Shown: positions 36,835 through 62,402 of the stretch, one piece after another
Layout of the letters: every line of letters starts with the position of its first letter
Position numbering within the stretch: the stretch's first letter is position 1
Assembly (NCBI GenBank): GCA_965198675.1
Contig: OZ240666.1
Span: forward strand, 3,172,776 to 3,236,775
DNA from: Prochloron sp.
Lineage (GTDB): Bacteria > Cyanobacteriota > Cyanobacteriia > Cyanobacteriales > Prochloraceae
Length of the DNA stretch: 64,000 nucleotides
Direction of reading: 5' to 3'
Made by a program: the position numbers and the translations under genes
The notes under the pieces: generated by a model
Databases searched by the model: none
What the model saw: the letters and a program-made list of their open reading frames with translations, nothing else
Told to the model about the DNA's origin: nothing

Positions 36835-36932
36835 CTTTCGAGTTATTTTAATCCAATGCTTGAATTTGAGATTTTTTTGACCCAACCCCTTGACCAATGA
36901 ATTATTATTGTAGTAAACTGTAAATAAGTAGA

Positions 36933-37032
36933 TGGCGGGATGGTCGCCCTTATTCATTCCTTGCCTGACAAGGCCGCAGAATGAGGTTTATCGTTGGTAA
37001 AGACAATGCGGGTTCGACCCCCGTCCCCGCCG
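36933..37032 (+). ncRNA. tRNA-like / Y-RNA-like chimeric RNA, unit 2 (truncated, no D arm)
   Basis: Promoter is TTGACC 36890-36895 with TAAACT. The terminal stem is GGCGGG/CCCGCC. The module is CCTTATTCATTCCTTGCC-TGACAA-GGCCGCAGAATGAGGTTTATCG. The T arm is GCGGGTTCGACCCCCGT, followed by CATTTTT. Confidence 0.45.
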
Positions 37033-37299
37033 CTCCCATTTTTCTCAAATTACCTCTATAGCAGTGAGCACGTACCTTGACAGTTACCAGTACTAATGAC
37101 TAGTTATAGCAATGTCCCGAAAGCTTTATACCACTGTCATTGAGCTAACTTCGTGCAGATGTATATCCAAGTTTAATCTGTAACTCAAGAGTGCGCGAAT
37201 CGCTCTATCTCAAAATTAGATTGTAAATATTTATTACAAATGCTTGAACCCCCTTGACAGTTACTGTATTTCCAGTGTAATATAAAATATATAAACCTT

Positions 37300-37434
37300 T
37301 GGCGGAGTAGCTTAAATGGATAGAGCATTTGTCCAGATTCCTTATTCGTTTCTTGCCCTAGGGGCCGAAGAATTGAGGATTATCGACTCCTGGCTTTACC
37401 GGGAAAGATGCGGGTTCGACTCCCGTCTCCGCCA
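37300..37434 (+). ncRNA. tRNA-like / Y-RNA-like chimeric RNA, unit 3
   Basis: Promoter is TTGACA 37254-37259 with TAATAT 37278-37283. The stem is TGGCGGAG/CTCCGCCA and the D arm is GCTTAAATGGATAGAGC. The module is TTCCTTATTCGTTTCTTGCCC-TAG-GGGCCGAAGAATTGAGGATTATCG. The T arm is GCGGGTTCGACTCCCGT, followed by a T-run. Confidence 0.6.
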
Positions 37435-37510
37435 TCAATATTTTTCTCTTACCTCTTGACAAGTAAAATATGTTTGTAGTAAAATTAGAATAGAGAAGTT
37501 AATAAAGCTT

Positions 37511-37629
37511 GTGGCGAGTAGCCAAGTGGTAAGGCAGTTTCCTTGTTCGTTCCTTGCCCCATGGGCCGAAGAATTGAGGATTATCGTTTTGGGAACGACT
37601 ATTCGGGGGTTCGACTCCCCCTTCGCCAC
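37511..37629 (+). ncRNA. tRNA-like / Y-RNA-like chimeric RNA, unit 4 (retains a UGG anticodon hairpin)
   Basis: Promoter is TTGACA 37456-37461 with TAAAAT 37480-37485. An 8-bp stem GTGGCGAG/TTCGCCAC is followed by TA and the D arm GCCAAGTGGTAAGGC. The Ro-type module is present. The anticodon-like hairpin is TCGT-TTTGGGA-ACGA and the T arm is GGGGGTTCGACTCCCCC. A T-run follows. Confidence 0.7.
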
Positions 37630-37707
37630 CTTCATTTTTTTTTAATTACCTCTTGACAAATGAAATATGTTTGTAGTAACATTAGAATATAAAAGTTAAT
37701 AAAGTTT

Positions 37708-37839
37708 GTGGCGAGTGGCCGAGTGGTCAAAGGCGAGTTGTTTTTACTATCCCTTGTTTATTCCTTGCCCTATGGGCCGAAAAATTGAGGGTTATCAAAC
37801 TTGATTATATCTTCGGAGGTTCAAATCCTTCCTCGCCAC
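37708..37839 (+). ncRNA. tRNA-like / Y-RNA-like chimeric RNA, unit 5 (Ser/Leu-type D arm)
   Basis: Promoter is TTGACA 37653-37658 with TAACAT 37677-37682. The stem is GTGGCGAG/CTCGCCAC and the D arm is GGCCGAGTGGTCAAAGGCG. A stem AGTT/AACT carries the module CCCTTGTTTATTCCTTGCCC-TAT-GGGCCGAAAAATTGAGGGTTATC. The T arm is GGAGGTTCAAATCCTTC. Confidence 0.65.
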
Positions 37840-37913
37840 CTTCATTTTTATCCAATTACCTCTTGACAGTAAAAATATGTAGTAAAATAAGAATACAGTC
37901 ATTAATAAAGCTT

Positions 37914-38011
37914 GTGGCGAATCGTCTAGAGGCCTAGGACACTTATCCTTATTCGTTCCTTGCCTTACGGGCCGAAGAGGAGAGACGGGGGTTCGAATCC
38001 CCCTTCGCCAC
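37914..38011 (+). ncRNA. tRNA-like / Y-RNA-like chimeric RNA, unit 6 (Glu-type D arm, 3' half of module deleted)
   Basis: TTGACA 37863-37868 is only 14 nt from TAAAAT. The stem is GTGGCGAA/TTCGCCAC and the D arm is GTCTAGAGGCCTAGGAC. The module is truncated after GGGCCGAAG. The T arm is GGGGGTTCGAATCCCCC. Confidence 0.5.
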
Positions 38012-38089
38012 TTTCATTTTTTTTTAATTACCTCTTGACGAATGAAATATGTTTGTAGTAACATTAGAATATAAAAGTTAATAAAGTTT

Positions 38090-38210
38090 GTGGCGAGTAG
38101 CTCAGTGGTAGAGCGAGTTTTCCTTATTCATTCCTTGTCTAATGGGCCGAAGAATTAGGATTATCGACTTATAAGCGACTTGATCGGGGGTTCGATTCCC
38201 TCCTCGCCAC
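38090..38210 (+). ncRNA. tRNA-like / Y-RNA-like chimeric RNA, unit 7 (UAU anticodon-like loop)
   Basis: Promoter is TTGACG 38035-38040 with TAACAT 38059-38064. The stem is GTGGCGAG/CTCGCCAC and the D arm is GCTCAGTGGTAGAGC. The Ro-type module is present. The hairpin TCGA-CTTATAA-GCGA has one mismatch. The T arm is GGGGGTTCGATTCCCTC. Confidence 0.7.
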
Positions 38211-38288
38211 CCCATTTTTATCAAATTACCCCTTAACAAATAAAATATATGTGTAGTAAACTAAAAATATAAAAATTTATAAAATTGG

Positions 38289-38421
38289 TGGCGAGTGGCT
38301 GAGTGGTTGAAAGCAAGTTATTGTAACTTATCCTTGTCCTGATCCTTGGTTGCTTCTTTGCCCTAGGGGCCGTAAATTGAGGGTTATCTAAGGGATCGGG
38401 GGTTCGAATCCCCTCTCGCCA
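38289..38421 (+). ncRNA. tRNA-like / Y-RNA-like chimeric RNA, unit 8
   Basis: Promoter is TTAACA 38233-38238 with TAAACT 38257-38262. The stem is TGGCGAG/CTCGCCA and the D arm is GGCTGAGTGGTTGAAAGC. A hairpin AAGTTA-TTG-TAACTT precedes an expanded module (…CTTCTTTGCCC-TAG-GGGCCGTAAATTGAGGGTTATC). The T arm is GGGGGTTCGAATCCCCT. Confidence 0.6.
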
Positions 38422-38501
38422 GTTTCAATTTTTTTCCAATTACCTCTTGACCAATGAAACATATGTGTAGTATAATTAAAATATAGAGATTAATAAAGCA
38501 T

Positions 38502-38622
38502 GTGGCGAGTAGCTCAATGGTAGAGCGAGTACTCCTTGTTCATTCCTTGCCCTAGGGGCCGAAGAATGAGGATTATCGACTCATAATCGACTAGGTAGGG
38601 GGTTCGATTCCTTCTTCGCCAC
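38502..38622 (+). ncRNA. tRNA-like / Y-RNA-like chimeric RNA, unit 9 (retains a CAU anticodon hairpin)
   Basis: Promoter is TTGACC 38447-38452 with TATAAT 38471-38476. The stem is GTGGCGAG/TTCGCCAC and the D arm is GCTCAATGGTAGAGC. The module is TCCTTGTTCATTCCTTGCCC-TAG-GGGCCGAAGAATGAGGATTATCG. The hairpin TCGA-CTCATAA-TCGA has a canonical Met-type loop. The T arm is GGGGGTTCGATTCCTTC. Confidence 0.7.
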
Positions 38623-38644
38623 ACCATTTTTCTCAAATTCCCCC

Positions 38645-38850: not shown

Positions 38851-40158
38851 ATGAATTATCAGTTTTTTACTCAAAAAAAGACAGGAACGCCTCAAAATAA
38901 ACCCATACCGGGACGGGAAGCGGAGATGATTCAAGGGCGCTCCGGGGGCTTCATGTTCGATGCTGGCATTTGGCAAATGCTGCGACGCTGCTTGCTTATT
39001 GGCACAGCTCAAAGCACCTACTATGCAGGAAAGAAAGAATTAACAGAAGATTTTGTCCAAGTTATTAAAGAGGCGATCGCTACTAACCCGAATAAAGTAG
39101 CAGAAAAAATAGTCTACGCTAGTGACGGTAAGGCTATCAATAATAGCGCCCCTTTATTTGCTTTGGTACTCTTATCTATGGGAGCAACACCAGAAGCAAA
39201 AAAGGCATTTCAGGAAATCTTTCCCCAAGTAGTTCGCACTGGAAGTCATTTTTATGAATGGTTGAGCTACACCAAAGCTCTGAGAGGATTTGGGAAGGTA
39301 GTGCGAGAAGTGGGGAGGCAATGGTTATCTCGGGAAAATGTTAAAAATTTAACTTATCAACTACTGAAATACCAACAGCGTCACGGCTTTTCTCATCGGG
39401 ATGCTTTGCGTCTATTTCACGTTCAACCTCCTACGGAAGAGCATAACCAATTGTTTCGTTGGGTAGTCAAAGGTTGGGATGAACTGCCAACAGAAATTCC
39501 CAGGTCAGCACTGGCTCAAATTTGGTGGTATGAGTGGTTGAAACGGAACCCTAATAAAACCCATGAGGCGATTGCCAAAGGTAACCTCACCCACGAAATG
39601 GTTGCCCCAGTAGGGAAAATGGATAAGCAAGCATGGCAATTATTATTTGATAAAATGCCCATTGGTGCAATGCTGCGGAACTTAGGTTCTCTGACGGAAC
39701 TAGGAGTACTCCGGGCTGACACACCAGGTAATTTAGACAGGGTGGAAGGAGTACTCAACAATTCTATCTATCTACGTAAAGGAAGAATCCACCCTATAGA
39801 CGTACTTAAAGCCTTGAAAACTTATCAATCTGGAGGTAGAATCGGGAGGAGCAAGAAAACCTGGAACCCAGTAGGGCGGATTGTGGATATCTTAGAAAAG
39901 GCAGTGGAATTGTCTTTTGATGTGGTGGAACTTACAGAGAAGGTATTCATGCACGCGGTGGATATATCCGGTTCCATGTCTTGTGGTGTGGTGGAGTCAG
40001 TAGGAATGAGCTGCTGCGAGATTGCCACTACTATGGCATTAGTTACAGCTAAGGCGGAGAAAAACTACGCTATTAGGGGATTTTCCACCAAGTTCCGCGA
40101 TTTGGGTATCTCTAAAAAAGATAGCTTTAGGAGTGCAATCGCCAAAGCTAGCAATTAA
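38851..40158 (+). CDS. rsr: Ro60/Rsr ortholog (TROVE domain + start of vWA domain), terminated by an in-frame TAA
   Basis: TROVE-like N-terminal region (…QGRSGGFMFDAGIWQMLRRCLLIGTAQSTYYAGKKELT…). The vWA MIDAS start is AVDISGSMS. The stop at 40156-40158 is in the same frame as the next ORF. Confidence 0.8.
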   Translation: MNYQFFTQKKTGTPQNKPIPGREAEMIQGRSGGFMFDAGIWQMLRRCLLIGTAQSTYYAGKKELTEDFVQVIKEAIATNPNKVAEKIVYASDGKAINNSAPLFALVLLSMGATPEAKKAFQEIFPQVVRTGSHFYEWLSYTKALRGFGKVVREVGRQWLSRENVKNLTYQLLKYQQRHGFSHRDALRLFHVQPPTEEHNQLFRWVVKGWDELPTEIPRSALAQIWWYEWLKRNPNKTHEAIAKGNLTHEMVAPVGKMDKQAWQLLFDKMPIGAMLRNLGSLTELGVLRADTPGNLDRVEGVLNNSIYLRKGRIHPIDVLKALKTYQSGGRIGRSKKTWNPVGRIVDILEKAVELSFDVVELTEKVFMHAVDISGSMSCGVVESVGMSCCEIATTMALVTAKAEKNYAIRGFSTKFRDLGISKKDSFRSAIAKASN

Positions 40159-43854: not shown

Positions 43855-46800
43855 TTAATTCTCCAAAAAACCACTTTCTCTGAAGTAGCAGAGGTAAGTT
43901 TTAAATAAATCCTGATTAACCTCCGGTAACTTGATACCACTTCCCCTTAAACCATCAACCACATTGCGACAATCGTACTCAATTAAGTTTGTTGTGCTTG
44001 ACGGTGATTCCGGGAAGTTGGGTAAGTAAGGGTAGAGAGGATTTTCCATATCCTCTATCAACTTGGAACGCCAATCAGTATAGTCAATTTCTTCCAAGCT
44101 ATAGCCCAGGGAGCGCACCCACTCAAAAATCTCCCTCAGAGGCACCGATTTTGGATTAATTAAATGAAATGCCTTCCCAAATAAACTGTTTTGTTGTGAG
44201 AGACAAACAATCGCTCGGCTGACATAATCTACTGGGACAAGGTTTTCTGGTAAACCACTCCAGCTAGGAAAACTTTTGAGTCGAATACATCCTTTCACCA
44301 GTCGCGAGAGTAAGTCATCGAAACTAGAGACACCGGTTTGACTGTGACCACTAATCCTCGACGGTCGATAGATAGTTATGGGCAAACCGCGCTTGGCAGC
44401 TTCCCAAACTAACTGTTCTCCTACCCACTTGGTCTGAACATAGCCTACTTTTAGTAAATCATAATGATTGGCAGTTGCTGACTCGAGAATGGGTTGGTCA
44501 GTTTGGGATGTTGAGAATAGAGTAGAAACGTAATGAACAGGTTTGAGCTTTCCTAAACTGGCCAGTCTTAACACGTCTTGGGTTCCCAAAACATTCGCAT
44601 CTTTTAAAAGAGCGTAAGACCACAGATGATGAACCTTAGCTCCAACGTGATAAATAACATCAATTTGTTGGCATAAATTATTATACTCAGTTGCTGAGAG
44701 TCCAAAACGACTGCTTCCTAAATCTCCGATGATGGGAATAATTCGACATGTAAAATTATCACTCCATAAACCAGAAGCTTCTAACTTGTTCTTGAGTCTT
44801 TCTTTGCCAGCATCTACATGCTCGGCGCGAACCAAGCAATAAACAGTAGCGTCCGTTGTGGTCAAGAGTTCAGAAAGTAAATGAATTCCCAAGAAACCTG
44901 TTGCACCGGTTAGGAAAATTCGTTCAATTGGACTGACGATTGGCGCGATCGCAGTTGATGGCTGAATATCTGGATCTAAAGCAGCTTCTGCTTCTAAATC
45001 CCAAGTCTGGGATTGATAGTTTCCAGTTACTAAAGCTTGGTCGATTGCACTAGCCAAATCAGAAACAGAGGGATAATCAAACAATGCCCTTAGAGATAAA
45101 TTAATCTCGAAGGCTTCACGAATGCGAAACATCAGTTGAGTGGCCAATAGGGAATGACCACCTAAGTCAAAGAAACTATCATCAAGGCTAATGGTCTCAG
45201 GGTGCAGGGAGAGAATTTCGGCAAAAAGACTAGCGATAAGAATTTGACTCTCTGTCTTCGGTGCAACGAACTCACTGCTTTGGCTGAAGGCAGCATAGGG
45301 GGCAGGTAATGCTTTGCGGTCTATCTTACCACTGACAGACAGGGGTAATGACGTCAGGGGCACCACTACACTGGGAACCATGTAGTCTGGTAACTGCTGT
45401 TTGCAGTACTCTTTCAGAGCCTTAATGTCAAAATCATCATCCCCAACTACATAGGCTACCAGCCGCTTGTTCCCTGGGGTATCTTCCCAGGGGATGACGA
45501 CGCATTCCTGCACCTGCTGGTGGCCACTGAGCAAGGATTCAATTTCCCCTAGTTCGATACGGAAGCCTCTGATTTTGACTTGATGGTCAATGCGACCGAG
45601 GAATTCAATATTACCATCCCGGCGGTAGCGAGCCAAGTCTCCTGTCTTGTAGAGACGACCTTCGCCGAAGGGATTGGGAATGAATTTTTCTACGGTTAGC
45701 TCCGGGCGATTCAAATAACCTCGGGCTATACCCAGACCACCAATATGAAGTTCTCCAGGAATGCCAATCGGGGTAGGATTACCATTACTATCCAAGATAT
45801 AGATAGTTCGATTCGGCAAAGGACGACCAATAGGCACTCGTGGCATAGAGCTATCGGTCTTTAAGGCTCCAGCAATATCAAATGTGGTTGTGGTAATGGT
45901 TGCTTCTGTTGGACCGTAAGCATTGAGCAAGCCCACTGAATCTAACCAGGGATTTTTTTGGCACAGTTGTTGCCAAAGTTTTATGGTTTCTGGTTGAAGG
46001 ACATCGCTACCAGAAACCACTAGTCGCAGATGAGGTAGAGGGGGAGCATCTTGAGGATTTTGCTGTTGCCAGTGTAACCATTGATGCCAGTAGCTGGGGG
46101 GGAGATTGACAAATGTCAGTTCCAGTTCAATCAATTTCTGGTGAAACTCAGGCACAGTCCACAGGTCAGGGTCTCTCAGCACCAAGGTGGCTCCACTGAT
46201 TAAAGGGGGGAAGATTTCTTCTAGGGCAGCGTCAAAACTGAAAGAGGTAAATTGAAGAAACCGATCCTGACTCGTTACTTGATAATGTTCTGTAATGGCA
46301 TAACAATGGCTAGCAATGGCCTGATGTTCGATTAAAACTCCCTTAGGTTGACCAGTAGACCCAGATGTATAAATGACATAGGCAAGGTGTTGGGGTTGGA
46401 CATTGACAGGAGCTGAAACGGTATCTTGCTGCGCGCACCGCGTAGCGGATCCCTTCGGGATCGCTGACCAATCTGCATCCAAATAAACGACTTCTACCTG
46501 AGATTCGGGCAATCTTGCCCGTAACGCTTTTTGAGTGAGCAAAACAGCAATTCCTGAATCTTCCAGCATATAAGTCAGTCGAGTGTTAGGATAATCAGGA
46601 TCGAGGGTGACATAAGCCCCTCCTGCTTTAAGAATCCCCAACAAGCCCACCACCATCTCTATAGAACGCTCCAGACAAATGCCCACCAAGGTTTCTGGCT
46701 TCACCCCCAAGCCTTGGAGATAGTGAGCTAACTGATTGGCACGGGCATTCAGCTCTTGATAAGTCAACTGCTCACCGGCAAAGACTACTGCCACAGCCTC

Positions 46801-49800
46801 TGGTGTTCGCTCTGCCTGTGCTTCAAATAGGTGATGAATGCAATGTTCTTGGGGATAGTCTACCCTGGTGTCATTCCACTCCACCAACAACTGCTGGCCC
46901 TCGTCAGCACTCAGTAACGGCAACTGCTCAACCCGTTCCTCTGGATTAGTCACAATCCCAGCTAGTAAGGTTTTAAAGTTACTAGCCATCCGAACAATGG
47001 TCTCTCGGTCAAACAAATCACTGTTGTATTCCCAGTATCCGCTTAGCTCGGAAGGGCTATCTACCATTGATAGAGTAAGGTCAAACTTGGCGGTTTGATG
47101 CTCTCGCTCAATAGGGGTGAGGGTTAGGCCAGGAAACTCCCCATAAGTTGGGCTTTGCTCTAAAGCAAACATGACCTGAAACAAGGGACTATGACTCAGG
47201 GAACGTTCTGGTTGCAGAATTTCCACCACTTTTTCAAAAGGAATATCCTGATGACTATAGGCAGACAGAGCAACCTGACGCACCTGCTGAAGCAGTTCTC
47301 TAAAAATGGGATTTCCTTCAGTTCGAGTCCGTAGCACTAACGTATTCACAAAGAAGCCAATCAGGGATTCGGTTTGACGGTGATGGCGATTGGCAACAGG
47401 GGTACCAATGAGGATATCCTGCTGGCTGCTGTAGCGTGAGAGGAGGATGGCAAAGGCAGCCAGCAAGGTCATAAACAAGGTACTATTAGTCCCTCGCGCT
47501 AAGGTCCGCAACTTTTGGGACACAGCGGTGTCGAGCTGAAAATGGAATTGCCCTCCCCGAAAACTTTGTACAGATGGTCGGGGGCGATCCGTAGGTAAAT
47601 TGATCGGGGAGCATACATCAGCTAACTGCCCTTTCCAATAATCTGCCTGTTGCTCAATCACATTTACTTCCAACCACTGACGTTGCCAAGCAGCATAGTC
47701 AAGGTACTGAATTGGTAAAGGTTTGAGGGGAGAAGGTTGCCCAGCCACAAAAGCGGCATAGAGGGTTGACAGTTCCTGTAGAAGCAGTTCCATGGACCAG
47801 CCATCCGACACAATGTGGTGCAGGGTCAGGAATAGGGCATGGTCTTCTGGGGATAACTGCAATATAGTAGCCCTGATTGGCAAATCCTGCTTCAAATCAA
47901 AGGGTTGATCAGCTTCTGCTGTCGCCCATTTCTGGAGGTTCTGTTGGTGATTACCTTCCTGTTGAAGCTCCACTACAGCTAACGTAAACTCAGCAGAGGG
48001 ATCGATTGTTTGCAGTGGGATACCGTTAACAACCTGAATGCGGGTTCGCAGAATACTATGGCGTTGAATAATTTCCTGAAGTCCTCGCTCCAAAGCTCCC
48101 ACATCTAGGGAACCTGTAATTTTCAGGGCAACCGCAATGTTATAGGTGGCGTTAGGCCGTTCTTCTAGCTGATTGAGAAACCAAAGGCGGGCTTGGGCAA
48201 AAGAGAGGGGGAGGGGTTGGCCTTCGGACTCCCTTGGAACAATGTCCGGTAGGGTCAATCCAGGAGTCGTTTGTTGGCTATTAATAATGATGGAGGCTAA
48301 ACCAGCAACTGTGGGGGATTCAAATATAATCTTCACTGGTAATTCAACCTCAAACGCTTCCCGCAGTCGAGAAATAACCTTGGTTGCCAACAACGAATGG
48401 CCCCCGAGGGCAAAAAAGTTATCGTGGATACCCACTCGTTCTTGCCCTAATACCGTAGCTATAATATTGGCAATAACTGTTTCAGCTTGGGTGCGGGGAG
48501 CAACAAAATTTGTTTCTCGCTCTTGTTCAAAATCTGGAATGGGTAACCTACGGCGATCAACTTTACCATTGGGGGTTAAGGGAAAGCTATCCAGCCAGAC
48601 AATGGCATTGGGCACCATGTAATCCGGCAACTTTTGCTTGAGAAAAGAGCGGAGTTCATTTCCACTAACCTGGGTTTCACTTCTTTTCACATAAGCCACC
48701 AGGGACTTATCCCCAGAACCATCTTGTCGTACTATGACGATCCCTTGGCTTACCTGGGGATGTTGATTTAAGACAGCTTCAATTTCTGAAAGCTCAATCC
48801 GAAAGCCGCGAATTTTGACTTGATTGTCGATTCTACCCAGAAACTCAATATTGCCATCCGGTAAATAGCGAACTAAGTCCCCCGTCTTGTAAAGAATCTC
48901 ACCCTCTAGAAAAGAACTGGCAATAAAACGTTCGGCGTTCAGTTCGGGACGATTCAGATAGCCTCTTGCCACTCCATCTCCCCCAGCGTACAGTTCTCCC
49001 ACTACTCCAATGGGAACAGGTTGATGTTGCCCATCTAAGATGTAAACTCGGGTATTGGCAACGGGGCGACCAATGGGAATTGATTGTCCCAAAGAAGCTC
49101 CCGTGGGAACAGGATAGCAACAGGTAAAGGTGGTGTTCTCCGTGGGACCATAGCCATTAATAAACTGACAATGAGGCAGAGTTTGACAACATTTCTGCAC
49201 ATGGGACACAGATAGCACATCTCCACCTGCCATCAGAATACGTAGAGATTGCAAATCTTCCAACCGCTCATCCACCATCAAGTGAAACAATCCAGCGGTG
49301 AGCCATAGGGCTGTGATCTGATGTTGCCCAATGACTTGCCCCAAGGTTTCCAAGGAGGGTTTCGGTTCCGGGAACAGAACCAGACGGGAGCCATTGAGCA
49401 AACTGCCCCAGATTTCCCAGGTAGCTGCATCAAAAGAAACCGATGCCAACTGCAGAAACACATCATTGCTGGTAAATTGAGCATAGTTAGTATTCTTCAC
49501 CAGCCGCACAATATTGCGATGGGTCACGCCGACCCCTTTAGGTTGTCCTGTAGACCCTGAAGTATACATGACATAGGCCAAAGACTTAGCCGTAACTCTC
49601 CCCTCTCTCCCCTCTTTCTCTGCGTCCTCTGCGTCTCTGCGGTTTATCATTCCCGAACCTATATCGATAGAATAAGCCACCTCTGGCAAATTCTCCCTCA
49701 CACCCGTTTCCGTCACAATTACCTGCAAACCAGCATTCTCTACCATGAAAGCCAGTCGCTCAGGAGGATAAGTTGGGTCGAGGGGAACGTAGGCTCCACC

Positions 49801-52800
49801 TGCTTTCAGAATTGCCAACAGGGCGATAATTAGGTTAGGGGACCGCTCTAAACAAACCCCCACCAAACTCTCTGAACCAACCCCCAAGCTTTGCAAATAA
49901 TGGGCCAGTTGGTTTGCCTTTTGATTCAACTCCTGATAGGTTAAGGTTTGGTCTGCCAAAACCACTGCTACTGCATCTGGTGTCTTTTGGACTTGAGCTT
50001 CAAATAACTGGTGAACGCAGGCATTACGAGGATAATCGGTTTGAGTCTGATTCCACTCCAGTAACAATTGCTGTCGTTCAGCAGCACTCAAAATGGGCAA
50101 TTGGGCAATGGTTTGTTCTGGATTGAGAACTATCCCTTCGACAAAAATGTGGAAATTTCTTGCCATCCGCTCAATGGTTGCCCCATCAAACAGGTTGGCA
50201 TTGTATTCAAAAGCGCCAATCAGTTCTGTATTGCTTTGGGTGAGGGATAAGGTTAAATCAAAGGTAGCCCCAGCAGTAGGTTTATCTAAGGGCTTAGGAT
50301 TGACAGTCAGCCCCGACAACTCTAGGGTTTCCTTCGGGACATTTTGCAAGGTAAACATCACCTGAAAGAGGGGACTAACCCCTGGCAGCCGTTCCGGTTT
50401 CAGTTGCTCTACGAGAAGGTCGAAGGGGACATCGGCATGGGCATAAGCGTCTAAGGCCACTTGACGAACCTGGGAAAGCAACTCAAGGAAGGTATGCTCT
50501 AGCTGAGGTCGAGTGCGCAAGACTAAGGTATTAACGAAGAAGCCAATCAAAGCCTCTGTTATGGCTGGGGTTCGGTTGGCGATGGGAGTCCCTACCACAA
50601 TATCGTCTTGATTGCAATAACAGGAGAGAAAAGCGGAAAAGGCAGCAAAAAGTGTAATAAATAGAGTTGTATTAGAGCGTTTGCTTAAGATATGGAGTTT
50701 CTGAGTTAGGTCAGTATTGAAGTGAAAGGGAACCCACCCCCCGTAGCCCCCCTCCCGGGTTCCCCTCCTGGGAGGGGGTAGGGGTGGGTGGGGTTGGGGG
50801 GTGGGTTCAGTTGTGTGAGGACGATCCAAGGGGAGGTTAAGCACTGGGGGAGCATCTGCTAATTGCTGTTGCCAGTATTTAATTTGGGCATCTCTAAACT
50901 TACCTGTGAACCGGTGGCGTTGCCAGTGAGCATAATCTACATACTGAATGGGTAGGTCAGAAAGGGATGGTGCTGTTGACCTATGATAGCTTGTGTAAAA
51001 GCACGAAAGTTCTCTGAGTAAAACTTGTATTGACCAATCATCACTAATGATGTGGTGCATAGTCAGTAGTAAAATTTGCTTTTCCTGTGCTAAGCAAATT
51101 AGCGTAAATCGCACCAGAGGCTCTTGAGTTAAATCGAAGGGGCGATTTTGTTCTTGGAGAATAACTTTCTCAAGGACATCTTTCCCTTCAGTGGTCAAGT
51201 CTACAACTGATAAGGGTAAAGGAATATGGGGGGCAATTATCTGAATTGGCGAACCATTTTGGGTTTCAAATGTCGTTCGGAGTATTTCGTGGCGGTCTAT
51301 GAGAGTGGCGATCGCCTTTTCTAAACTCTTCCTATCCAACGACCCAGTTAGCACAAAAGCTCTGACCAAGTTATAAGCAGCACGATTTTCTTCTAGTTGA
51401 GCCAGAAACCAGAGACCTTGTTGTGTTAGGGATAGGGGAATGTCTGCCTCTCTTGCCGTGGGTGTGGGGGCTAAGGGATATTCAGAAGTGCTAGTATTTA
51501 CGGATTCTATATACTTTGAAAGTAGGCTAATTGTTGGTGCTTCAAAAATCTGCTTCAATGGCATTTCAATACCTAGTTTCTCTGCAATACGAGCCAAAAC
51601 TTGGCTAGCATGAAGGGAGTGTCCCCCTAATTCAAAGAAATTATTCTCAATGCCAATCGGCTCTATTTTAAGGACTTCAGACCAAATTTTGACTAATATT
51701 TCTTCTATATTAGTACGGGGGGCAATAACATTTAATTCTAATGCTGATGTTGCCAGAATTGATTCTGGTTTAGGTAGAGCTAGTCGGTCAATTTTACCAG
51801 TTGCAGTTAAAGGTAATGACTCTAGCCAAATGAAGCAAGCTGGAATCATGTAACTGGGTAATTTATCCCCTAAAATAGCTTTTAATTCTTGAGCTGTAAG
51901 TTTGTTTTGAGGATTTACCGGAGTCAAATAAGCCACTAGCTGTAAATCGCCCACTGCTCCCCCTTTTTCTGTCTGGGCAACTACAACCGCCTCTCCAACA
52001 GCTTCTAGGTTCAACAAAGTGGCTTCCACTTCACTGGTTTCAACCCGATAACCTCGGATTTTAACCTGAAAATCTTTACGGCCTAGGTGCAATAAACAAC
52101 CATCGGGCAACAACTTACCTAAATCACCTGTTTTAAAATATTTATGATTATTTTTACTAATAAACACTCGTTTAGTTAACTCAGGCTGTTGCCAGTACCC
52201 CAAGGCAAGTTGGCGAGAACGAATTACAATTTCACCAACGTCTCCTGGGGCAACCTCCTGTCCTGATTCATCCCAAAGCAAAACTTCCGTTCCCTCAACC
52301 CTATAGCCCGCAGGCACGGTGGGACCAGTGAGAACTGTATCTTTGGTAATGGGAAATTGTCGCACCGGACTAATCTCTGTACCCCCCAGATTCACCATTA
52401 AGGTGCATTGCGGGGAAAAATGGCGCTGAAACAGTTCTGCATCCTGTCGGTAAACGGTTTCGCTCCCAATTTGGATCAGTCGCAACTTGGGAAAATCTGC
52501 TTCCTCGTTCAAAGTGGCAGCGAAGTGACGAAACAGGGTGGCAACCATGAACGTCACGGTAATCTCATTGTCTTGCAACCATCCAGCCAATTTGTGCAAA
52601 TTGATTTGCTTTACGTCTAGAGGCAATAAGGTGGCACCGTTCAACAAGGCACAGTAAATATCTCGCACTGCACCACCGAAGGCGGCTGAATACAACAGTG
52701 AAAAGCGATCGCCACAGGTCATCTTTCCGCTGTTGCTATAGTTGCGATAGAGATTGAGAACATACCGATGGTTTTGCATGACACCCTTGGGGCGGGAGGT

Positions 52801-53313
52801 GGAACCGGAGGTGTAAAGGATATAAGCTAGGTCATCAGGATGACACTGAATCTCTAGGTTCTCATCTGAGATTTCTTTATCTAGGGTGTCAATCCTCAAA
52901 ACATCTTGGCTCAAAATGCTCTGCTCAAACCCTGAAGCCTGGAGATGGTGGCGATGGCTTAAAATTAATTTAGCTTTTGAGTCTTTCAGAATCAGGCTAA
53001 GGCGAGACTCTGGCAACGATATATCTAAGGGAACGTAAAATTTCCCCGCCTTGAGTACCCCCAACATGGCTGCAATCATTGCTGGTTCTGTTGCAAAGAG
53101 GAGAGCGACGGGTTCAGCTACGGTATTACGGCAATCTAGAATTGCTCTGGCAATTTGATTAGACCAGCGATTTAACTCATTGTAGGTTAGGGAGCGCCCT
53201 TGAAAGATAATGGCTGGGCGCGAGCCATGTTGTAAGACTTGAGTCTGAAATCGTTCTGGGATAGATTGTTCCAGAATTTCTCCACCAATATTGTTAGTCG
53301 CCTTTGATACCAT
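43855..53313 (-). CDS. non-ribosomal peptide synthetase, A-T-C-A-T-C-A-T-R (3 modules, terminal thioester reductase)
   Basis: Three adenylation cores are present (LAYILYTSGSTSRPKG, LAYVMYTSGSTGQPKG, LAYVIYTSGSTGQPKG, each with YKTGDL and GRxDxQVKIRG). Three carrier motifs are present (FFELGGHSL, FFALGGHSL, FFDLGGHSL). Two condensation domains are present (MHHIISDDWS, LHHIVSDGWS). The C-terminal SDR-type reductase reads IFLTGATGFLGIHLL. Confidence 0.95.
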   Translation of the reverse strand: MVSKATNNIGGEILEQSIPERFQTQVLQHGSRPAIIFQGRSLTYNELNRWSNQIARAILDCRNTVAEPVALLFATEPAMIAAMLGVLKAGKFYVPLDISLPESRLSLILKDSKAKLILSHRHHLQASGFEQSILSQDVLRIDTLDKEISDENLEIQCHPDDLAYILYTSGSTSRPKGVMQNHRYVLNLYRNYSNSGKMTCGDRFSLLYSAAFGGAVRDIYCALLNGATLLPLDVKQINLHKLAGWLQDNEITVTFMVATLFRHFAATLNEEADFPKLRLIQIGSETVYRQDAELFQRHFSPQCTLMVNLGGTEISPVRQFPITKDTVLTGPTVPAGYRVEGTEVLLWDESGQEVAPGDVGEIVIRSRQLALGYWQQPELTKRVFISKNNHKYFKTGDLGKLLPDGCLLHLGRKDFQVKIRGYRVETSEVEATLLNLEAVGEAVVVAQTEKGGAVGDLQLVAYLTPVNPQNKLTAQELKAILGDKLPSYMIPACFIWLESLPLTATGKIDRLALPKPESILATSALELNVIAPRTNIEEILVKIWSEVLKIEPIGIENNFFELGGHSLHASQVLARIAEKLGIEMPLKQIFEAPTISLLSKYIESVNTSTSEYPLAPTPTAREADIPLSLTQQGLWFLAQLEENRAAYNLVRAFVLTGSLDRKSLEKAIATLIDRHEILRTTFETQNGSPIQIIAPHIPLPLSVVDLTTEGKDVLEKVILQEQNRPFDLTQEPLVRFTLICLAQEKQILLLTMHHIISDDWSIQVLLRELSCFYTSYHRSTAPSLSDLPIQYVDYAHWQRHRFTGKFRDAQIKYWQQQLADAPPVLNLPLDRPHTTEPTPQPHPPLPPPRRGTREGGYGGWVPFHFNTDLTQKLHILSKRSNTTLFITLFAAFSAFLSCYCNQDDIVVGTPIANRTPAITEALIGFFVNTLVLRTRPQLEHTFLELLSQVRQVALDAYAHADVPFDLLVEQLKPERLPGVSPLFQVMFTLQNVPKETLELSGLTVNPKPLDKPTAGATFDLTLSLTQSNTELIGAFEYNANLFDGATIERMARNFHIFVEGIVLNPEQTIAQLPILSAAERQQLLLEWNQTQTDYPRNACVHQLFEAQVQKTPDAVAVVLADQTLTYQELNQKANQLAHYLQSLGVGSESLVGVCLERSPNLIIALLAILKAGGAYVPLDPTYPPERLAFMVENAGLQVIVTETGVRENLPEVAYSIDIGSGMINRRDAEDAEKEGREGRVTAKSLAYVMYTSGSTGQPKGVGVTHRNIVRLVKNTNYAQFTSNDVFLQLASVSFDAATWEIWGSLLNGSRLVLFPEPKPSLETLGQVIGQHQITALWLTAGLFHLMVDERLEDLQSLRILMAGGDVLSVSHVQKCCQTLPHCQFINGYGPTENTTFTCCYPVPTGASLGQSIPIGRPVANTRVYILDGQHQPVPIGVVGELYAGGDGVARGYLNRPELNAERFIASSFLEGEILYKTGDLVRYLPDGNIEFLGRIDNQVKIRGFRIELSEIEAVLNQHPQVSQGIVIVRQDGSGDKSLVAYVKRSETQVSGNELRSFLKQKLPDYMVPNAIVWLDSFPLTPNGKVDRRRLPIPDFEQERETNFVAPRTQAETVIANIIATVLGQERVGIHDNFFALGGHSLLATKVISRLREAFEVELPVKIIFESPTVAGLASIIINSQQTTPGLTLPDIVPRESEGQPLPLSFAQARLWFLNQLEERPNATYNIAVALKITGSLDVGALERGLQEIIQRHSILRTRIQVVNGIPLQTIDPSAEFTLAVVELQQEGNHQQNLQKWATAEADQPFDLKQDLPIRATILQLSPEDHALFLTLHHIVSDGWSMELLLQELSTLYAAFVAGQPSPLKPLPIQYLDYAAWQRQWLEVNVIEQQADYWKGQLADVCSPINLPTDRPRPSVQSFRGGQFHFQLDTAVSQKLRTLARGTNSTLFMTLLAAFAILLSRYSSQQDILIGTPVANRHHRQTESLIGFFVNTLVLRTRTEGNPIFRELLQQVRQVALSAYSHQDIPFEKVVEILQPERSLSHSPLFQVMFALEQSPTYGEFPGLTLTPIEREHQTAKFDLTLSMVDSPSELSGYWEYNSDLFDRETIVRMASNFKTLLAGIVTNPEERVEQLPLLSADEGQQLLVEWNDTRVDYPQEHCIHHLFEAQAERTPEAVAVVFAGEQLTYQELNARANQLAHYLQGLGVKPETLVGICLERSIEMVVGLLGILKAGGAYVTLDPDYPNTRLTYMLEDSGIAVLLTQKALRARLPESQVEVVYLDADWSAIPKGSATRCAQQDTVSAPVNVQPQHLAYVIYTSGSTGQPKGVLIEHQAIASHCYAITEHYQVTSQDRFLQFTSFSFDAALEEIFPPLISGATLVLRDPDLWTVPEFHQKLIELELTFVNLPPSYWHQWLHWQQQNPQDAPPLPHLRLVVSGSDVLQPETIKLWQQLCQKNPWLDSVGLLNAYGPTEATITTTTFDIAGALKTDSSMPRVPIGRPLPNRTIYILDSNGNPTPIGIPGELHIGGLGIARGYLNRPELTVEKFIPNPFGEGRLYKTGDLARYRRDGNIEFLGRIDHQVKIRGFRIELGEIESLLSGHQQVQECVVIPWEDTPGNKRLVAYVVGDDDFDIKALKEYCKQQLPDYMVPSVVVPLTSLPLSVSGKIDRKALPAPYAAFSQSSEFVAPKTESQILIASLFAEILSLHPETISLDDSFFDLGGHSLLATQLMFRIREAFEINLSLRALFDYPSVSDLASAIDQALVTGNYQSQTWDLEAEAALDPDIQPSTAIAPIVSPIERIFLTGATGFLGIHLLSELLTTTDATVYCLVRAEHVDAGKERLKNKLEASGLWSDNFTCRIIPIIGDLGSSRFGLSATEYNNLCQQIDVIYHVGAKVHHLWSYALLKDANVLGTQDVLRLASLGKLKPVHYVSTLFSTSQTDQPILESATANHYDLLKVGYVQTKWVGEQLVWEAAKRGLPITIYRPSRISGHSQTGVSSFDDLLSRLVKGCIRLKSFPSWSGLPENLVPVDYVSRAIVCLSQQNSLFGKAFHLINPKSVPLREIFEWVRSLGYSLEEIDYTDWRSKLIEDMENPLYPYLPNFPESPSSTTNLIEYDCRNVVDGLRGSGIKLPEVNQDLFKTYLCYFRESGFLEN
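50731..50807. repeat. GC-rich nested palindromic element (composite copy) in frame inside the first condensation domain of the NRPS
   Basis: AACCCACCCCCCGTAGCCCCCCTCCCGGGTTCCCCTCCTGGGAGGGGGTAGGGGTGGGTGGGGTTGGGGGGTGGGTT. It is translated as …PQPHPPLPPPRRGTREGGYGGWVP…. Confidence 0.85.
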
Positions 53314-55607: not shown

Positions 55608-56571
55608 ATGACCAGATTCTTACACGATCAGTTCGCTAAAGAATACCTCAAGGAATTGTTAAAACCCATGGGGCTGACAGAAACTGGTCAAGAGTTAGCC
55701 TCAGAAGTGCAACAAATTGATGTCTGCTTTTCCCCAAAACCACAACCAAACCAAGACCAAGAACAGAAAGAGCTGGGGTTACTAGGAAGGTTCGCCTCAA
55801 CTCCAGCAATATTTGAACCCTTTCGCTCCCCAGTAAAGAAAAATGAAGTTCTCAGTTGTCTTGGTAAGCTGTTCAATGTTAATCGCTTATCTCAAAGAAC
55901 GCTACGCAAGAAAAGGAAGCTGTCGGACAGGGAATTACATCATCTCTGGATTCTAACACCAACAGCGTCTCCTGACTTCCTAGCCAGCTTTGGAGCTTCT
56001 CCAGATGAAGAAAACTGGGATCCAGGGGTCTATTTTTTGCCAGAATCACTCAAAACTGCTATTGTGGTGATTCATCAATTACCGCAAAACCCACCCCCCC
56101 AACCCCCCCTCCCGGGAGGGGGGCGAAAGGGGGGGTGGGTTAAGAATTTTGGGCAAAGGAAAAGTGCAGCAACAGGCAATTAATGAATTAAAAGCCATAC
56201 CAGAAAGTCCCCGACGGGAAAATACACTAGAATTGTTATATAACCTCTTCCATCTTTTAGAAGTTCGTCAAGATGTAGAACCAGATGACCAGGAGTTGAT
56301 TATGAAGTTATCCTCTCTTTATACGCAAAGGCTAGAAGCTGCTACAGAACAAGGATTACAGCAAGGATTACAGCAGGGATTACAGCAAGGAGAACGACAG
56401 ACAACCCGTCGCTTCATTACCAATCTCCTGGAAGTGCGATTTTCCCAGGTAGACGAGGAACTGACAACAGTTATTGAACCTTTAATGGAACTGCCTACAG
56501 AAGAACTTACTCCTTTGTTGTTACAATTATCTCGGGAGAAGTTATTAGCTAGGTTTGGAAATGTTAACTAA
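55608..56571 (+). pseudogene. DUF4351-type (PD-(D/E)XK-like) cyanobacterial family protein, frame broken by a palindromic element
   Basis: The N-terminus is MTRFLHDQFAKEYLKELL…EVQQIDVCF. The frame changes at the element 56088-56141. The downstream frame reads LRILGKGKVQQQAINEL…LLLQLSREKLLARFG. A QQGL x3 repeat is present. Confidence 0.6.
56088..56141. repeat. GC-rich nested palindromic element
   Basis: AACCCACCCCCCCAACCCCCCCTCCCGGGAGGGGGGCGAAAGGGGGGGTGGGTT, with longer C/G runs than the other copies. Confidence 0.85.
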
Positions 56572-58574: not shown

Positions 58575-58618
58575 AACCCACCCCCATCCCCTCCTGAGAG
58601 GGGAGCAGAGGGGTGGGT
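58575..58618. repeat. GC-rich nested palindromic element (intergenic copy)
   Basis: AACCCACCCCCATCCCCTCCTGAGAGGGGAGCAGAGGGGTGGGT. Confidence 0.8.
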
Positions 58619-58724
58619 CACCCTGGGTGTATCAATCGCCTTGGCGACTGCTATACCTATTAACTGGAAACTAATAACTGTTAAACAACTGGTAACTGGT
58701 AACTGGTTACTGGTAACTGTGATC

Positions 58725-59711
58725 TTAATCTTGCAAAGCAGCTAAGACGGTATCGTGAATTAAGCCATTGCTCACCACTATGCCCCGGTTATCCACCATT
58801 TTCGTACCCGTAGCAAAATCCAGGGGTTTACCATACATATCCGTCACCCGTCCCCCTGCTTCTTCCACGACAATGGAACCTGCTGCATGATCCCAAATGT
58901 TTTCCCGGTAGTTGGGAGCTTTAGGGGAAGGGAGACGCAGGTACAGAGCAGCTTGTCCTGCTGCCACTATACCATATTTGGCTTGGGAGTCCACCCGCAC
59001 CGAATCTGCTGTAATGCCGATGGCCTCTGCTACCGCTTTCTGGCGGGATTGGTCTCCGTGACTGGCTTCCACGCTCTCCACAAAACAGAAGTTGGCTCCA
59101 TCATTGCTGCTGACTACCTTAATTGGGTGGGGTACCCACCCCCAACCCCCTCCCGGGAGGGGGCGAAGGGGGTGGGTGGTGGTCCCTTCTCCTCGTACCG
59201 CCACAAAGATAAGGCCCATTTCACCAGGTAATATTGGTAAGGTAAGGGCTGGGCAACCCAATATACCTAACTTAACTTCACCTTTTTCTATCAAAGCCAA
59301 GGCTATGGCGTATTGGTCTTGACGCAGAAACCCTTTTGTGCCGTCAATGGGGTCTAAGGTCCAATAGCGATCGCCAACCTTACCATTTCCCAGGTCAATC
59401 CATTGGGTTACCTTTTCTTGGGTAGTATTATTGACCACTAAAGATACATATTTAGTTATCTTACTTAAAGTATCAGCCAGAGATGGTTGGCGCAATTGAG
59501 CAGCATCTTCTTCCCCTACAATAGAGTCATCAGGAAAAGCTTCCCCTAATGCTTGGCAAATAACTGCTTGGGAACCATAGTCAGCTACGGTTACGGGACT
59601 TTTGTCATCTTTTGTCATGGCTTGGGGAATGTCCCGACGTACTTGCTGGCAAAGTTTTGCAGCTCGTTGTACTGCCTCAATGGCAATTTCTTTTTCTTTT
59701 TCGTAAGACAT
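58725..59711 (-). CDS. 3'(2'),5'-bisphosphate nucleotidase / inositol-monophosphatase family (HAL2/CysQ-like) with an in-frame palindromic-element insert
   Basis: Likely start is MSYEKEKEIAIEAV (59711). Motifs are EED, WTLDPIDGTKGF and WDHAAG. The insert at 59134-59177 is translated as …THPLRPLPGGGWGWVPHP…. Confidence 0.8.
   Translation of the reverse strand: MSYEKEKEIAIEAVQRAAKLCQQVRRDIPQAMTKDDKSPVTVADYGSQAVICQALGEAFPDDSIVGEEDAAQLRQPSLADTLSKITKYVSLVVNNTTQEKVTQWIDLGNGKVGDRYWTLDPIDGTKGFLRQDQYAIALALIEKGEVKLGILGCPALTLPILPGEMGLIFVAVRGEGTTTHPLRPLPGGGWGWVPHPIKVVSSNDGANFCFVESVEASHGDQSRQKAVAEAIGITADSVRVDSQAKYGIVAAGQAALYLRLPSPKAPNYRENIWDHAAGSIVVEEAGGRVTDMYGKPLDFATGTKMVDNRGIVVSNGLIHDTVLAALQD
59134..59177. 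repeat. GC-rich nested palindromic element inside the phosphatase ORF
   Basis: ACCCACCCCCAACCCCCTCCCGGGAGGGGGCGAAGGGGGTGGGT. Confidence 0.85.
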
Positions 59712-59794
59712 CCCTTTCTCTCCGCGCCTCTGCGTTTCTGCGTGAAACTTTATCATAAACTATAATCAAATCCTGTATTCTTAATTTAACTAAA

Positions 59795-61667: not shown

Positions 61668-61846
61668 GTCTGTCAGCACCCCGCGCTAAATCTCCGGGCT
61701 GCTCGAGCCTCAGAGCATGAAGCTGCGAGACCAGTCTAAGTCGCAACGAGCGGCTACGTTTTTTGAGTCACGACACCCACGAATGCGTCGCTAGTTCATG
61801 GCCCTGTCGCTTGCGACTAAACAGTTTTACGAGGGGTAAGACAGTG
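61668..61846 (+). ncRNA. candidate structured sRNA (6S-RNA-like extended hairpin), speculative
   Basis: TATAAT lies at 61660-61665. The 5' TGTCT…CCCC pairs with the 3' GGGG…AGACA. An internal helix forms between CATGAA…GCGA and TCGC…TTCATG. The candidate is divergent from purF. No sequence-family match could be verified by eye. Confidence 0.2.
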
Positions 61847-62402
61847 TTGCAAGCCTAACAAACTCTTAAAACAAAGACTCATGCGAACTTAACCCTAGCA
61901 ATAGGAGTATTACGATTAGGGGACAATCTATCTGTATTCATCTGTGTTCATCTGCGTGCATCTGCGGTTCAAAAATTGCCACTTATGTCGGTAGAATTGC
62001 CACTAGAGCAACTGGTTCTTTTGATGTTGCCACTGTCAAGGGGAGGATTTCAGGGATTAGCTACAAATATTGTCAAGCCATTCATCGTTCATGATGGATA
62101 CAGTTACCAATTTCACGGCGGATAAATCCGCCGAGTCGAACTTCCTGGGCGAGTTAAAACATCGCGGCTTCCGTTCTCCCGAAAAATATCGTGATAAATG
62201 TCTGTAACCGCTGGGCTATTGAATCTCCCACGAAGGAAACAGCTTGGATTATCGAACAAGCACTCAGAACAATCAAGAAAAAGGGGTGTCAGGAGGGATA
62301 GGGGCAGAAATGTTGAATCTATAAAAATTATCAATTATCAATTTTTGGGTGTCTATTGCCGTGCCCCCACCACACACCCTACATCCCTTGGCATAAATTT
62401 GT

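Follow-up and report, generated by a model that had tools for sequence, protein, structure and literature searches.

This report concerns a family of short, G+C-rich palindromic repeats found in a 64,000-nt stretch of the genome of Prochloron sp. (GCA_965198675.1, contig OZ240666.1, positions 3,172,776-3,236,775, forward strand), which we call the window and number from its first base. Six full or composite copies of the repeat and one partial copy lie there. Two of them sit in frame in intact genes, one encoding a nonribosomal peptide synthetase (NRPS) and one a 3'(2'),5'-bisphosphate nucleotidase, and comparison with element-free loci suggests that such copies arrive by displacing a short patch of the host DNA. 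An original prediction, made from the sequence of the window, had recognized the family and likened its behavior to that of the palindromic elements of Rickettsia. The copies and the genes that hold them or adjoin them are as follows.

10080-11002, minus strand: decayed tnpB of the IS605 family, its frame changed and an internal stretch deleted; host of the 10362, 10394 and 10832 copies
10362-10392, plus strand: partial copy, left arm and inner palindrome, 'CAT' subtype; the expected right arm of about 15 nt is gone, with copy 10394 in its place
10394-10442, plus strand: full copy, 49 nt, in the tnpB remnant; it overwrote the right arm of the adjoining partial copy
10832-10881, plus strand: full copy, 50 nt, canonical, in the N-terminal remnant of the decayed tnpB
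43855-53313, minus strand: NRPS gene, 3152 aa, with Pfam domain order A-T-C-A-T-C-A-T-reductase
50731-50807, minus strand: composite copy, 77 nt, an outer copy enclosing a 30-nt partial second copy at about 50761-50790; in frame in the NRPS gene
55608-56571, plus strand: split gene, one ancestral gene of about 305 aa, now the open reading frames (ORFs) 55608-56183 and 56149-56571 in different frames
56088-56141, plus strand: full copy, 54 nt; host gene split by a frame shift
58575-58618, plus strand: full copy, 44 nt, intergenic, between the convergent gpsA and nucleotidase genes; 'CAT...AGCAGA' subtype, as in Okeania
58725-59756, minus strand: 3'(2'),5'-bisphosphate nucleotidase gene, Inositol_P family (Pfam E = 1.4e-47)
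59134-59177, plus strand: full copy, 44 nt, in frame, on the antisense strand of the nucleotidase gene

Hairpin copies in the window and their host genes

The unit is 42-54 bp long, with compound forms of up to about 77 bp, and is laid out as A-CCCACCCC(C), a 2-nt loop, CCCC(C)TCC-nn-GGAGGGG(G), a 4-6-nt loop and GGGGTGGG-T. Its inner palindrome, CCCTCCYRGGAGGG, occurs seven times in the window against 0.05 occurrences expected from dinucleotide shuffles, and a profile search built from the copies found no further ones there. Every copy folds as a single long stem with two asymmetric internal loops, with folding energies of -17 to -28 kcal/mol as DNA and -38 to -54 kcal/mol as RNA. The outer arms pair around a palindromic inner part as originally described, and at all of the coordinates named earlier the sequence matches that description. 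Two subtypes stand side by side in the window, with the loops 'AA ... CGAA' or 'AT ... AGCAGA', the latter in the 58575 copy and the partial 10362 copy.

The description of the family as GC-only is loose: the copies are nearly all G+C, with A or T at 10-20 of the 44-77 bases of each copy, sited at the tips and loops. The associated claim that no frame can acquire a stop codon holds in all six frames for the canonical copies; it fails for the 58575 copy, which has one stop, and for the NRPS composite, where two frames of the non-coding strand contain stops. In every frame and orientation, six-frame translation gives Pro/Thr/His/Ser/Leu from the C-rich half and then Gly/Arg/Trp/Val/Glu from the G-rich half. 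Four-tract G-runs, that is, motifs of the G-quadruplex (G4) type, are present on both strands of the element. The count of five copies in six inside ORFs is mechanically true, but three of those five lie in the decayed tnpB or in the gene that the element itself has split.

Two related loci served for close comparison: a locus of GCA_018141785.1 (L001), from a relative with 91-93% protein identity, and a metagenome contig, ERZ23486433 (L003). In 21 kb of each, the first has zero copies and the second three. The two element-bearing lineages, those of the window and L003, differ by about 8% in DNA.

The composite at 50731 makes up residues 836-861 of the NRPS, encoding EPTPQPHPPLPPPRRGTREGGYGGWV. 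It lies in the crossover loop of condensation domain C1, after the DRP motif and before the first strand of the C-terminal half of the domain. The frame across the element reads ...DRPHTTEPTPQPHPPLPPPRRGTREGGYGGWVPFHF..., where the paralogous site in module 2 reads DRPRPSVQSFRGGQFHF; both peptides, and the frame that stays open through the copy, are as the original prediction gave them. One predicted tryptic peptide spanning the insert is GTREGGYGGWVPFHFNTDLTQK. The empty state, DRPRTT(E/Q)PFKSGRVPF, is found in L001 and in P0121, a 79% identical homolog, while L003 carries the same composite as the window. At the DNA level the empty site in L001 is GAACC[GTTCAAATCTGGCA]GGGTTC and the filled site GAACC[CACCCC...GGGGGGT]GGGTTC, so that in the alignment with L001 as the empty state 14-21 nt are lost and 68-75 nt gained, a net change of +54 nt.

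An AlphaFold model of C1, built from a 59-sequence alignment, has a mean predicted local distance difference test score (pLDDT) of 88.7 and matches solved C domains with template modeling scores of 0.81-0.87 (Foldseek TMq). The insert is modeled as coil between helix 188-201 and strand 242-249, and the only segment with pLDDT below 50, residues 225-239, falls within the element-encoded residues 220-245. Because the one low-confidence segment lies inside the insert and the fold otherwise matches solved C domains, the prediction is of a C domain that is normal but for a floppy loop formed by the insert. In L001 (13419-20966) the orthologous NRPS region is in pieces, a number of short ORFs interrupted by a group II intron reverse transcriptase, and on account of this fragmentation the NRPS cluster of that relative may be inactive. 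A ratio of nonsynonymous to synonymous substitution rates (dN/dS) of 0.78 for C1 against L001 was discarded, as the fragmented L001 gene makes the alignment unreliable.

The nucleotidase copy encodes THPLRPLPGGGWGWV; the insert counts 15 residues. The L001 ortholog (P0003), which is 91% identical and of normal length, reads ...GEGTTMMPLSGKGAYPIKVV... at this position, as do 11 more distant orthologs; the extra Pro/Gly segment is present at the same position in the window protein and in its L003 counterpart (P0002). The exchange here cost about 24-27 nt and brought 44-48 nt, a net change of +21 nt. In L003 the site holds a 71-nt composite where the window has a 44-nt simple copy, with identical junctions. 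An AlphaFold model of the nucleotidase (14-sequence alignment, mean pLDDT 62.8) was too poor to place the insert and was left unused. In the neighboring intergenic DNA, short tandem runs of the heptamer CTGGTAA/CTGGTTA at 58686-58720 adjoin the 58575 hairpin copy, and such runs recur at 15525-15545. Heptamer runs of this type are common in filamentous cyanobacteria. The spacer between gpsA and the nucleotidase gene is filled in L001 and L003 by ACGCAGAT repeats; the region cannot be aligned to L001, and no empty site for the 58575 copy was obtainable from that relative.

The NRPS and nucleotidase sites are thus filled in the window and L003 and empty in L001 and in distant orthologs, and the comparison suggested by the original prediction bears out its view of these segments as inserts (L001 and P0121 for the NRPS, L001 and the 11 distant orthologs for the nucleotidase). 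Since both the 91-93% identical relative and the distant orthologs lack the Pro/Gly segments, the in-frame copies are, on sequence comparison, insertions gained recently in this lineage. Both host frames are open and under purifying selection between the window and L003, with dN/dS of 0.14 for the nucleotidase (dS 0.24) and 0.25 for the T-C1 region of the NRPS.

Other copies lie in broken genes. The split gene belongs to a multi-copy cyanobacterial family without a Pfam match. Full-length homologs of about 300-320 aa match the first ORF with residues 1-163 and the second with residues of about 168-310, and the uninterrupted homologs P0242, P0249 and P0253 read ...HQLPxTPETLW(F/L)RILGKGK... across the break. 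The 56088 copy took the place of about 18-20 nt, approximately the TPETLW codons, shifting the frame and splitting the gene. Its L003 counterpart has one extra G in a G-run, and this single-G difference indicates that the G-runs slip. The host gene is absent from L001, where there is accordingly no empty site for this copy.

In the tnpB pseudogene, which holds two and a half copies, three-frame translation shows that ORF 10313-11002 is an N-terminal remnant only, with the zinc-finger/RuvC-III tail in another frame; the assignment is backed by tblastn to Okeania TnpB. The replacement of the right arm of the 10362 copy by the next copy fits the patch-replacement rule set out below. A second tnpB of the window (20258-21313, minus strand, 351 aa, OrfB_IS605) is apparently intact and without a hairpin copy. 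Just downstream of the remnant, at 10031-10108, a short tandem repeat of the CGCAGAT type is followed by yet another small G+C hairpin, CCCCCTTTATCCCCCCGATCTAAGGGGGGTACCCGAAGGGTGGGGGG, the third type in the window, to which the ACGCAGAT repeats of the L001 and L003 spacers are similar. Nearby, at 11140-11404 and 13126-13495, a second, unrelated inverted-repeat family (CGTACGATGCGTTAC / GTAACGCATCCTACG) forms clusters, parts of which are 82-89% identical to a Paraprochloron contig.

Exchange for a patch of target DNA

We searched all retrieved loci for copies of which both flanks match an element-free locus, and this added seven sites to those in the NRPS, nucleotidase, pcb and split genes. At the 11 filled/empty sites in all, the element stands in place of about 13-24 nt of target, the loss never falling below 13 nt. 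Target-site duplication was seen at none of the 11, and at every one of them the ends of the element are exact, at the foot of the hairpin stem. As judged from these alignments, the element appears to integrate by patch replacement, with exact ends and no duplication. We know of no small bacterial repeat for which a swap with target DNA of this kind has been reported.

Besides the sites in the window, one comes from Candidatus Paraprochloron terpiosi (L010), where a copy is present in one pcb/psbC-like paralog out of three. The paralog closest to it, which is empty, reads CCCCACC[TCGCTACTTTAGGC]TGGGG, and 14-17 nt were lost and 41-44 nt gained, for a net change of +27. Seven further independent sites, designated A to G, lie in Okeania and Dapis tnpB paralogs, in which an element of 42-44 nt faces 13-21 unrelated, rather A+T-rich nt. 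Junction bases resembling the arms, C-rich on the left and G-rich on the right, occur at the three chromosomal gene sites and are absent at most tnpB sites; microhomology of the junctions to the arms was therefore rejected as a targeting rule.

The original prediction held that only the length of the element decides whether the host ORF survives. This was not borne out, because each insertion also removes about 13-24 host nt, and it is the net change that counts. In the surviving coding hosts inserted minus deleted length is zero modulo three (+54 in the NRPS, +21 in the nucleotidase, +27 in pcb and +30 at tnpB site A). At the other tnpB sites the net change is mostly +23 to +29 and not a multiple of three, which argues that target loss is intrinsic to integration and does not come from selection for frame. 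Copies within genes persist at surface loops, given an inserted-minus-deleted length divisible by three. The composite form seems to travel as well: a 30-nt inner piece is identical in the L003 nucleotidase composite and the NRPS composite, which points to the composite itself as a propagating variant.

Distribution, known relatives and mode of movement

To cover one genome per species, we scanned with the pattern CCCACCCC-N2-12-CCCTCCNNGGAGGG-N2-14-GGGGTGGG. At least 102 genomic stretches match, against a chance expectation that we estimate at about 0.002, given 28 fixed bases, 143 combinations of gap lengths and 1.2e12 positions. The same architecture, ACCCACCCC-x-CCCCTCCnnGGAGGGG-x-GGGGTGGGT, is found in cyanobacteria and in other phyla. 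The first 80 matches listed comprise 55 from cyanobacteria and 25 from seven or more other phyla, complete chromosomes included, and the supposition of a purely cyanobacterial family has to be given up. The cyanobacterial hosts among the matches listed are Okeania, Dapis, Oscillatoria, Prochloron, Candidatus Paraprochloron and Crocosphaera; the others listed are Brocadiaceae and other Planctomycetota, Verrucomicrobiota, Victivallales, Calditrichota, Nitrospirota, Ignavibacteria/Melioribacter, Bacteroidota (including the isolate Pontibacter arcticus) and a deltaproteobacterium. Units in the Brocadiaceae form part of longer arrays made up of related CCCCTC...GAGGGG hairpins. Carriage by phages was considered and set aside, with one match among 2.9 million viral contigs.

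Only 10 of 90 copies (11%), taken from many genomes, lie in ORFs with 100 or more open codons to either side of them, compared with 33% of random positions in the same loci. The element is depleted in coding DNA and is not preferentially intragenic. Elsewhere, in-frame copies were found in tnpB, in an antenna protein, in a Crocosphaera protein and in proteins sorted by the type IX secretion system (T9SS), and all three frames are used. In a Bacteroidetes metagenome-assembled genome (L070:2198-2241) and an Ignavibacteriales chromosome (L083:2427-2470) the element occupies, in frame, a homologous position of related T9SS-sorted secreted proteins (...VERxNPPHSPLPGGEEKGWVKIGFV...), with three tandem units in the former. 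The shared position may reflect an old insertion that has been conserved, or else a hot spot.

The commonest neighbor is tnpB, which lies at or around the element in 40 cyanobacterial loci. Pfam assignments of 148 neighboring ORFs have OrfB_IS605 (27), Cas12f1-like_TNB (18) and HTH_OrfB_IS605 (10) as the commonest families. Many Okeania copies ride inside tnpB insertion sequences, and the element occupies defined internal sites and positions near the 3' end of several tnpB families whose mutual identity is 25-40%. At site A it removed the strand before the catalytic Glu (SKIVI-EDL), and because that strand is lost the site A TnpB proteins are probably inactive. Insertion sequence genes, being multi-copy and dispensable, would gather insertions, and the insertion sequence copies would then multiply the hairpin and perhaps carry it between genomes.

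We compared the element with the small repeats already described. Rickettsia palindromic elements (RPEs), as far as the account of Ogata et al. 2000 given in PMC10969869 goes, are about 100-150 bp long, A+T-normal and confined to Rickettsia, encode a conserved peptide in one frame and are pure insertions. Like them, our element is palindromic, occurs in frame in unrelated housekeeping genes with a peptide tolerated on the protein surface, and has no known transposase. Unlike them, it is 42-77 bp long, nearly all G+C, readable in six frames, spread over many phyla and mostly extragenic, and it replaces about 13-24 nt of target. It has no sequence similarity to RPEs, and neither the length of about 100-150 bp nor the Rickettsia host applies, so the RPE-like label fails as a family assignment. 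As a functional analogy it stands for the NRPS and nucleotidase copies, which are in frame in intact, functional genes and absent from the orthologs, since the composition makes every frame stop-free and Pro/Gly-rich; it does not extend to the 56088 copy, which broke its host, or to the copies at 10362-10881 in the tnpB pseudogene.

Repetitive extragenic palindromic sequences (REPs), together with bacterial interspersed mosaic elements and REP doublets forming hairpins (REPINs), share several features with the element (PMC3733652, PMC3116915). Here too a short, G+C-rich, imperfect palindrome of high copy number lies mainly outside genes, often between convergent ones and sometimes in ORFs as a short peptide, forms clusters and nested forms, and lacks terminal inverted repeats of the insertion sequence type. 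The GTAG or CGTC end tag of REPs was not found, as the copies start with A-CCCACCCC and finish with GGGGTGGG-T. Nor is the unit a REPIN doublet, because its halves are C-only and G-only and a half is therefore itself no palindrome. REPs typically flank the gene of a REP-associated tyrosine transposase (RAYT, of the Y1/HUH type); among the window ORFs scanned and the commonest 25 of 115 families in neighboring ORFs, no RAYT gene was found near any copy. To our knowledge, target replacement has not been reported for REPs.

The cyanobacterial small dispersed repeats SDR1-8, going by the secondary description in PMC4390886, are 21-27 nt long and of ordinary composition, and SDR5 inserts precisely between bases 3 and 4 of the highly iterated palindrome HIP1. 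Within the bounds of that description, they resemble our element as very small mobile repeats with no transposase and no target duplication that nest in other repeats, while the element is longer and replaces a patch where SDRs insert cleanly at a defined site. [quoted passage not shown] Our element, like a MITE, is non-autonomous, hairpin-forming and polymorphic between close relatives, and can fuse to or disrupt ORFs. Target loss and not duplication is seen in all 11 filled/empty comparisons, though, and inverted repeats shared with a parent insertion sequence were not found, the element being internal to IS605-type tnpB and not at the ends of the insertion sequence. Palindrome-associated transposable elements of the IS200/IS605 group have conserved sub-terminal hairpins and cleavage sites beside them, and insert 3' of a fixed tetra- or pentanucleotide with no target loss; here the flanks of different sites are unrelated, they share no target word that we could find, and target is lost.

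Mobile GC clusters, or 'byp' hairpins, have reportedly been described in fungal mitochondria by Weiller et al. in 1989 and by Lang et al. in PNAS in 2014. They may be the nearest analogue in composition, as G+C-only hairpins of 30-55 nt in a more A+T-rich genome, protein-coding genes included; they differ in being organellar, some having target motifs and short duplications and some being skipped by the ribosome, where in our hosts the frame stays open. Rfam has no family for the element, generic hairpin models matching only far below threshold, and a protein search with element-encoded peptides (six frames joined) returned 394 word-sharing candidates, none of which yielded a score. The exact strings of the element were found in none of 8 million papers searched, and keywords returned reviews of MITEs and REPs only; most subscription journals lay outside this coverage and an earlier description is possible.

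Taken together, these results incline us, by a modest margin over all other accounts combined, to regard the element as one of the dispersed repeats of the REP/MITE/RPE kind, small, without coding function and not autonomous, recently gained, integrating by patch replacement and tolerated in frame within loops. It would enter intergenic DNA, insertion sequences and protein-coding genes alike. In tolerant genes the product would be a stop-free flexible loop, and out-of-frame events would break genes, as at 56088.

Several points weigh against this account. No mobilizing gene was found by Pfam among the ORFs of the window and the 148 neighboring ORFs, where no Y1/HUH or other transposase is enriched beside the copies and only tnpB, the target, is; a partner transposase beside the copies was sought and rejected on the same grounds, and Y1_Tnp appeared neither among the window ORFs scanned nor in the commonest 25 of the 115 families of the neighboring ORFs. 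The junctions of the filled/empty sites share no common target word or motif, and the idea that the element displaces the loop of a hairpin already present in the target was dropped as a general rule, as just three of ten empty sites fold with the lost segment as the loop. The filled/empty pairs on which the replacement rule is founded all come from three cyanobacterial lineages. The identity of the stems across phyla is partly by construction, because the search pattern fixes 28 bases. Of copies at a shared site, 117 pairs have flanks of 65-84% identity, and in their elements the positions left free by the pattern are 88-94% identical. These pairs are not independent events, and such likeness could come from purifying selection acting on the element, from conversion between copies or from more than one insertion into a given spot. 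Distances among the window, L001 and L003 are about equal and the three are mosaic, so one ancestral insertion and recurrent same-site insertion cannot be told apart, and an attempt to polarize events on a three-genome tree was abandoned for the same reason. Finally, the presence of the element in mRNA and its translation are read from the open frames.

If the copies move by patch replacement, a trans-acting enzyme would recognize the extruded hairpin by both structure and sequence and exchange it for a short target patch. We are led to think of an enzyme by the exactness of the ends and the narrow spread of deletion lengths, as well as by asymmetric loops that are conserved and stems identical across phyla, and we put this at a little under an even chance. 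The main competitor, which we consider possible and distinctly less probable, is enzyme-free templated repair or copy choice, in which about 13-24 nt are lost at a break, gap or stalled fork and the nascent strand copies a resident element elsewhere and returns, assisted by 1-6 nt of chance complementarity to the C- or G-rich arms; the same route would overwrite resident copies by gene conversion. The arm-like junctions GAACC...GGGTTC (NRPS), CCCCACC...TGGGG (pcb) and ACCACC...GGGTG (nucleotidase) are what such repair would leave, and it would also explain how a 44-nt variant and a 71-nt composite came to share identical junctions at the nucleotidase site, how the partial 10362 copy was overwritten by a second copy, and why same-site copies are far more alike than their flanks. 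Four-tract G-runs on both strands could stall replication, and no transposase candidate was found among the neighboring ORFs. Most tnpB sites, however, lack arm similarity at either junction, exact ends everywhere with a loss never below 13 nt are unexpected of untargeted repair, and the exact stem sequences are common to several phyla.

An improbable alternative is that the element is a structural signal useful to the host (a stabilizer or terminator-like stem at mRNA 3' ends, a protein-binding site or a G-quadruplex switch) that is selected and carried by insertion sequences, with the copies in genes incidental. That most copies are extragenic, one of them (58575) between convergent genes, agrees with such a role, as do the conserved stems and loop asymmetry and the G4-type motifs on both strands. 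Yet no T-run follows the stem, the Rfam search found no matching family, copies disrupt a gene (56088) and the catalytic strand of TnpB (site A), and presence varies between close relatives, down to zero in the 21 kb of L001. It is very improbable that intragenic copies go untranslated through ribosomal bypass or RNA removal, like the yeast mitochondrial 'byp' elements or the T4 gene 60 gap, which would make frame irrelevant: the extreme stability of the RNA hairpins, and the TTA codons of the split gene, one ahead of the element and one, in the downstream frame, at its 3' edge, are only suggestive, while take-off and landing codon pairs are not conserved and the frames of the NRPS, nucleotidase, pcb and some tnpB hosts run open through the element with the net changes given above, a signature of translation and not of bypass.

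The broadest form of the patch-replacement account is one we offer tentatively and with considerable doubt. It would hold that this is an undescribed kind of DNA mobility, in which a hairpin of about 44 nt, present in at least eight bacterial phyla, displaces a 13-24-nt patch, with neither duplication nor an obvious target motif, and can overwrite copies already resident, through an enzyme or repair pathway not yet tied to mobile elements. Its stop-free Pro/Gly coding in all frames would then be an adaptation or pre-adaptation by which it survives in proteins that are themselves essential, among them chlorophyll-binding antenna proteins, NRPS domains and phosphatases.

Other features of the window and wider significance

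Some features of the window lie apart from the hairpin family. Directly upstream of a Ro60/TROVE gene, at 36690-38630 and 38851-40158 (both plus strand), are at least seven tRNA-like genes of 118-136 nt, six of which match the Rfam tRNA model and none of which is called by ARAGORN. All carry a 'cttgaca' box of their own, and in each the expected position of the anticodon arm is taken by a conserved insert of about 50 nt; the array looks like multi-copy YrlA-type tRNA-like Y RNAs beside rsr. A HEARO (IscB omega-type) RNA at 61672-61893 (plus strand, 124 bits) has no same-strand ORF of at least 120 aa after it and may be an orphan or decayed IscB locus; a 77% identical copy is present in Candidatus Paraprochloron terpiosi (L067). 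Group II introns lie at 1518-3371 (plus strand) and 12358-12433 (minus strand). One has an intact reverse transcriptase/maturase ORF followed by domain V/VI, and the other is domain V/VI only, in a cadherin/RTX-repeat gene region broken into several ORFs (11445-14211).

How REP-like repeats of less than 100 bp move is a long-standing open question, and this family gives an unusually clean handle on it, with many filled/empty pairs that carry a reproducible and atypical patch-replacement signature, and with several hosts that are culturable and often sequenced. Nor is 'selfish DNA in proteins' that keeps the frame confined to Rickettsia: here the condensation domain of an NRPS, a phosphatase and an antenna protein of the photosystem have gained 7-18 net residues. 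Hairpins in the mRNA, together with runs of five to seven G or C, could make ribosomes pause and host genes prone to frameshifts. For annotation, spurious Pro/Gly 'low-complexity' segments and split genes are to be expected, and NRPS predictions must allow for such inserts. If confirmed genome-wide and by experiment, target replacement and spread across phyla would be of high interest.

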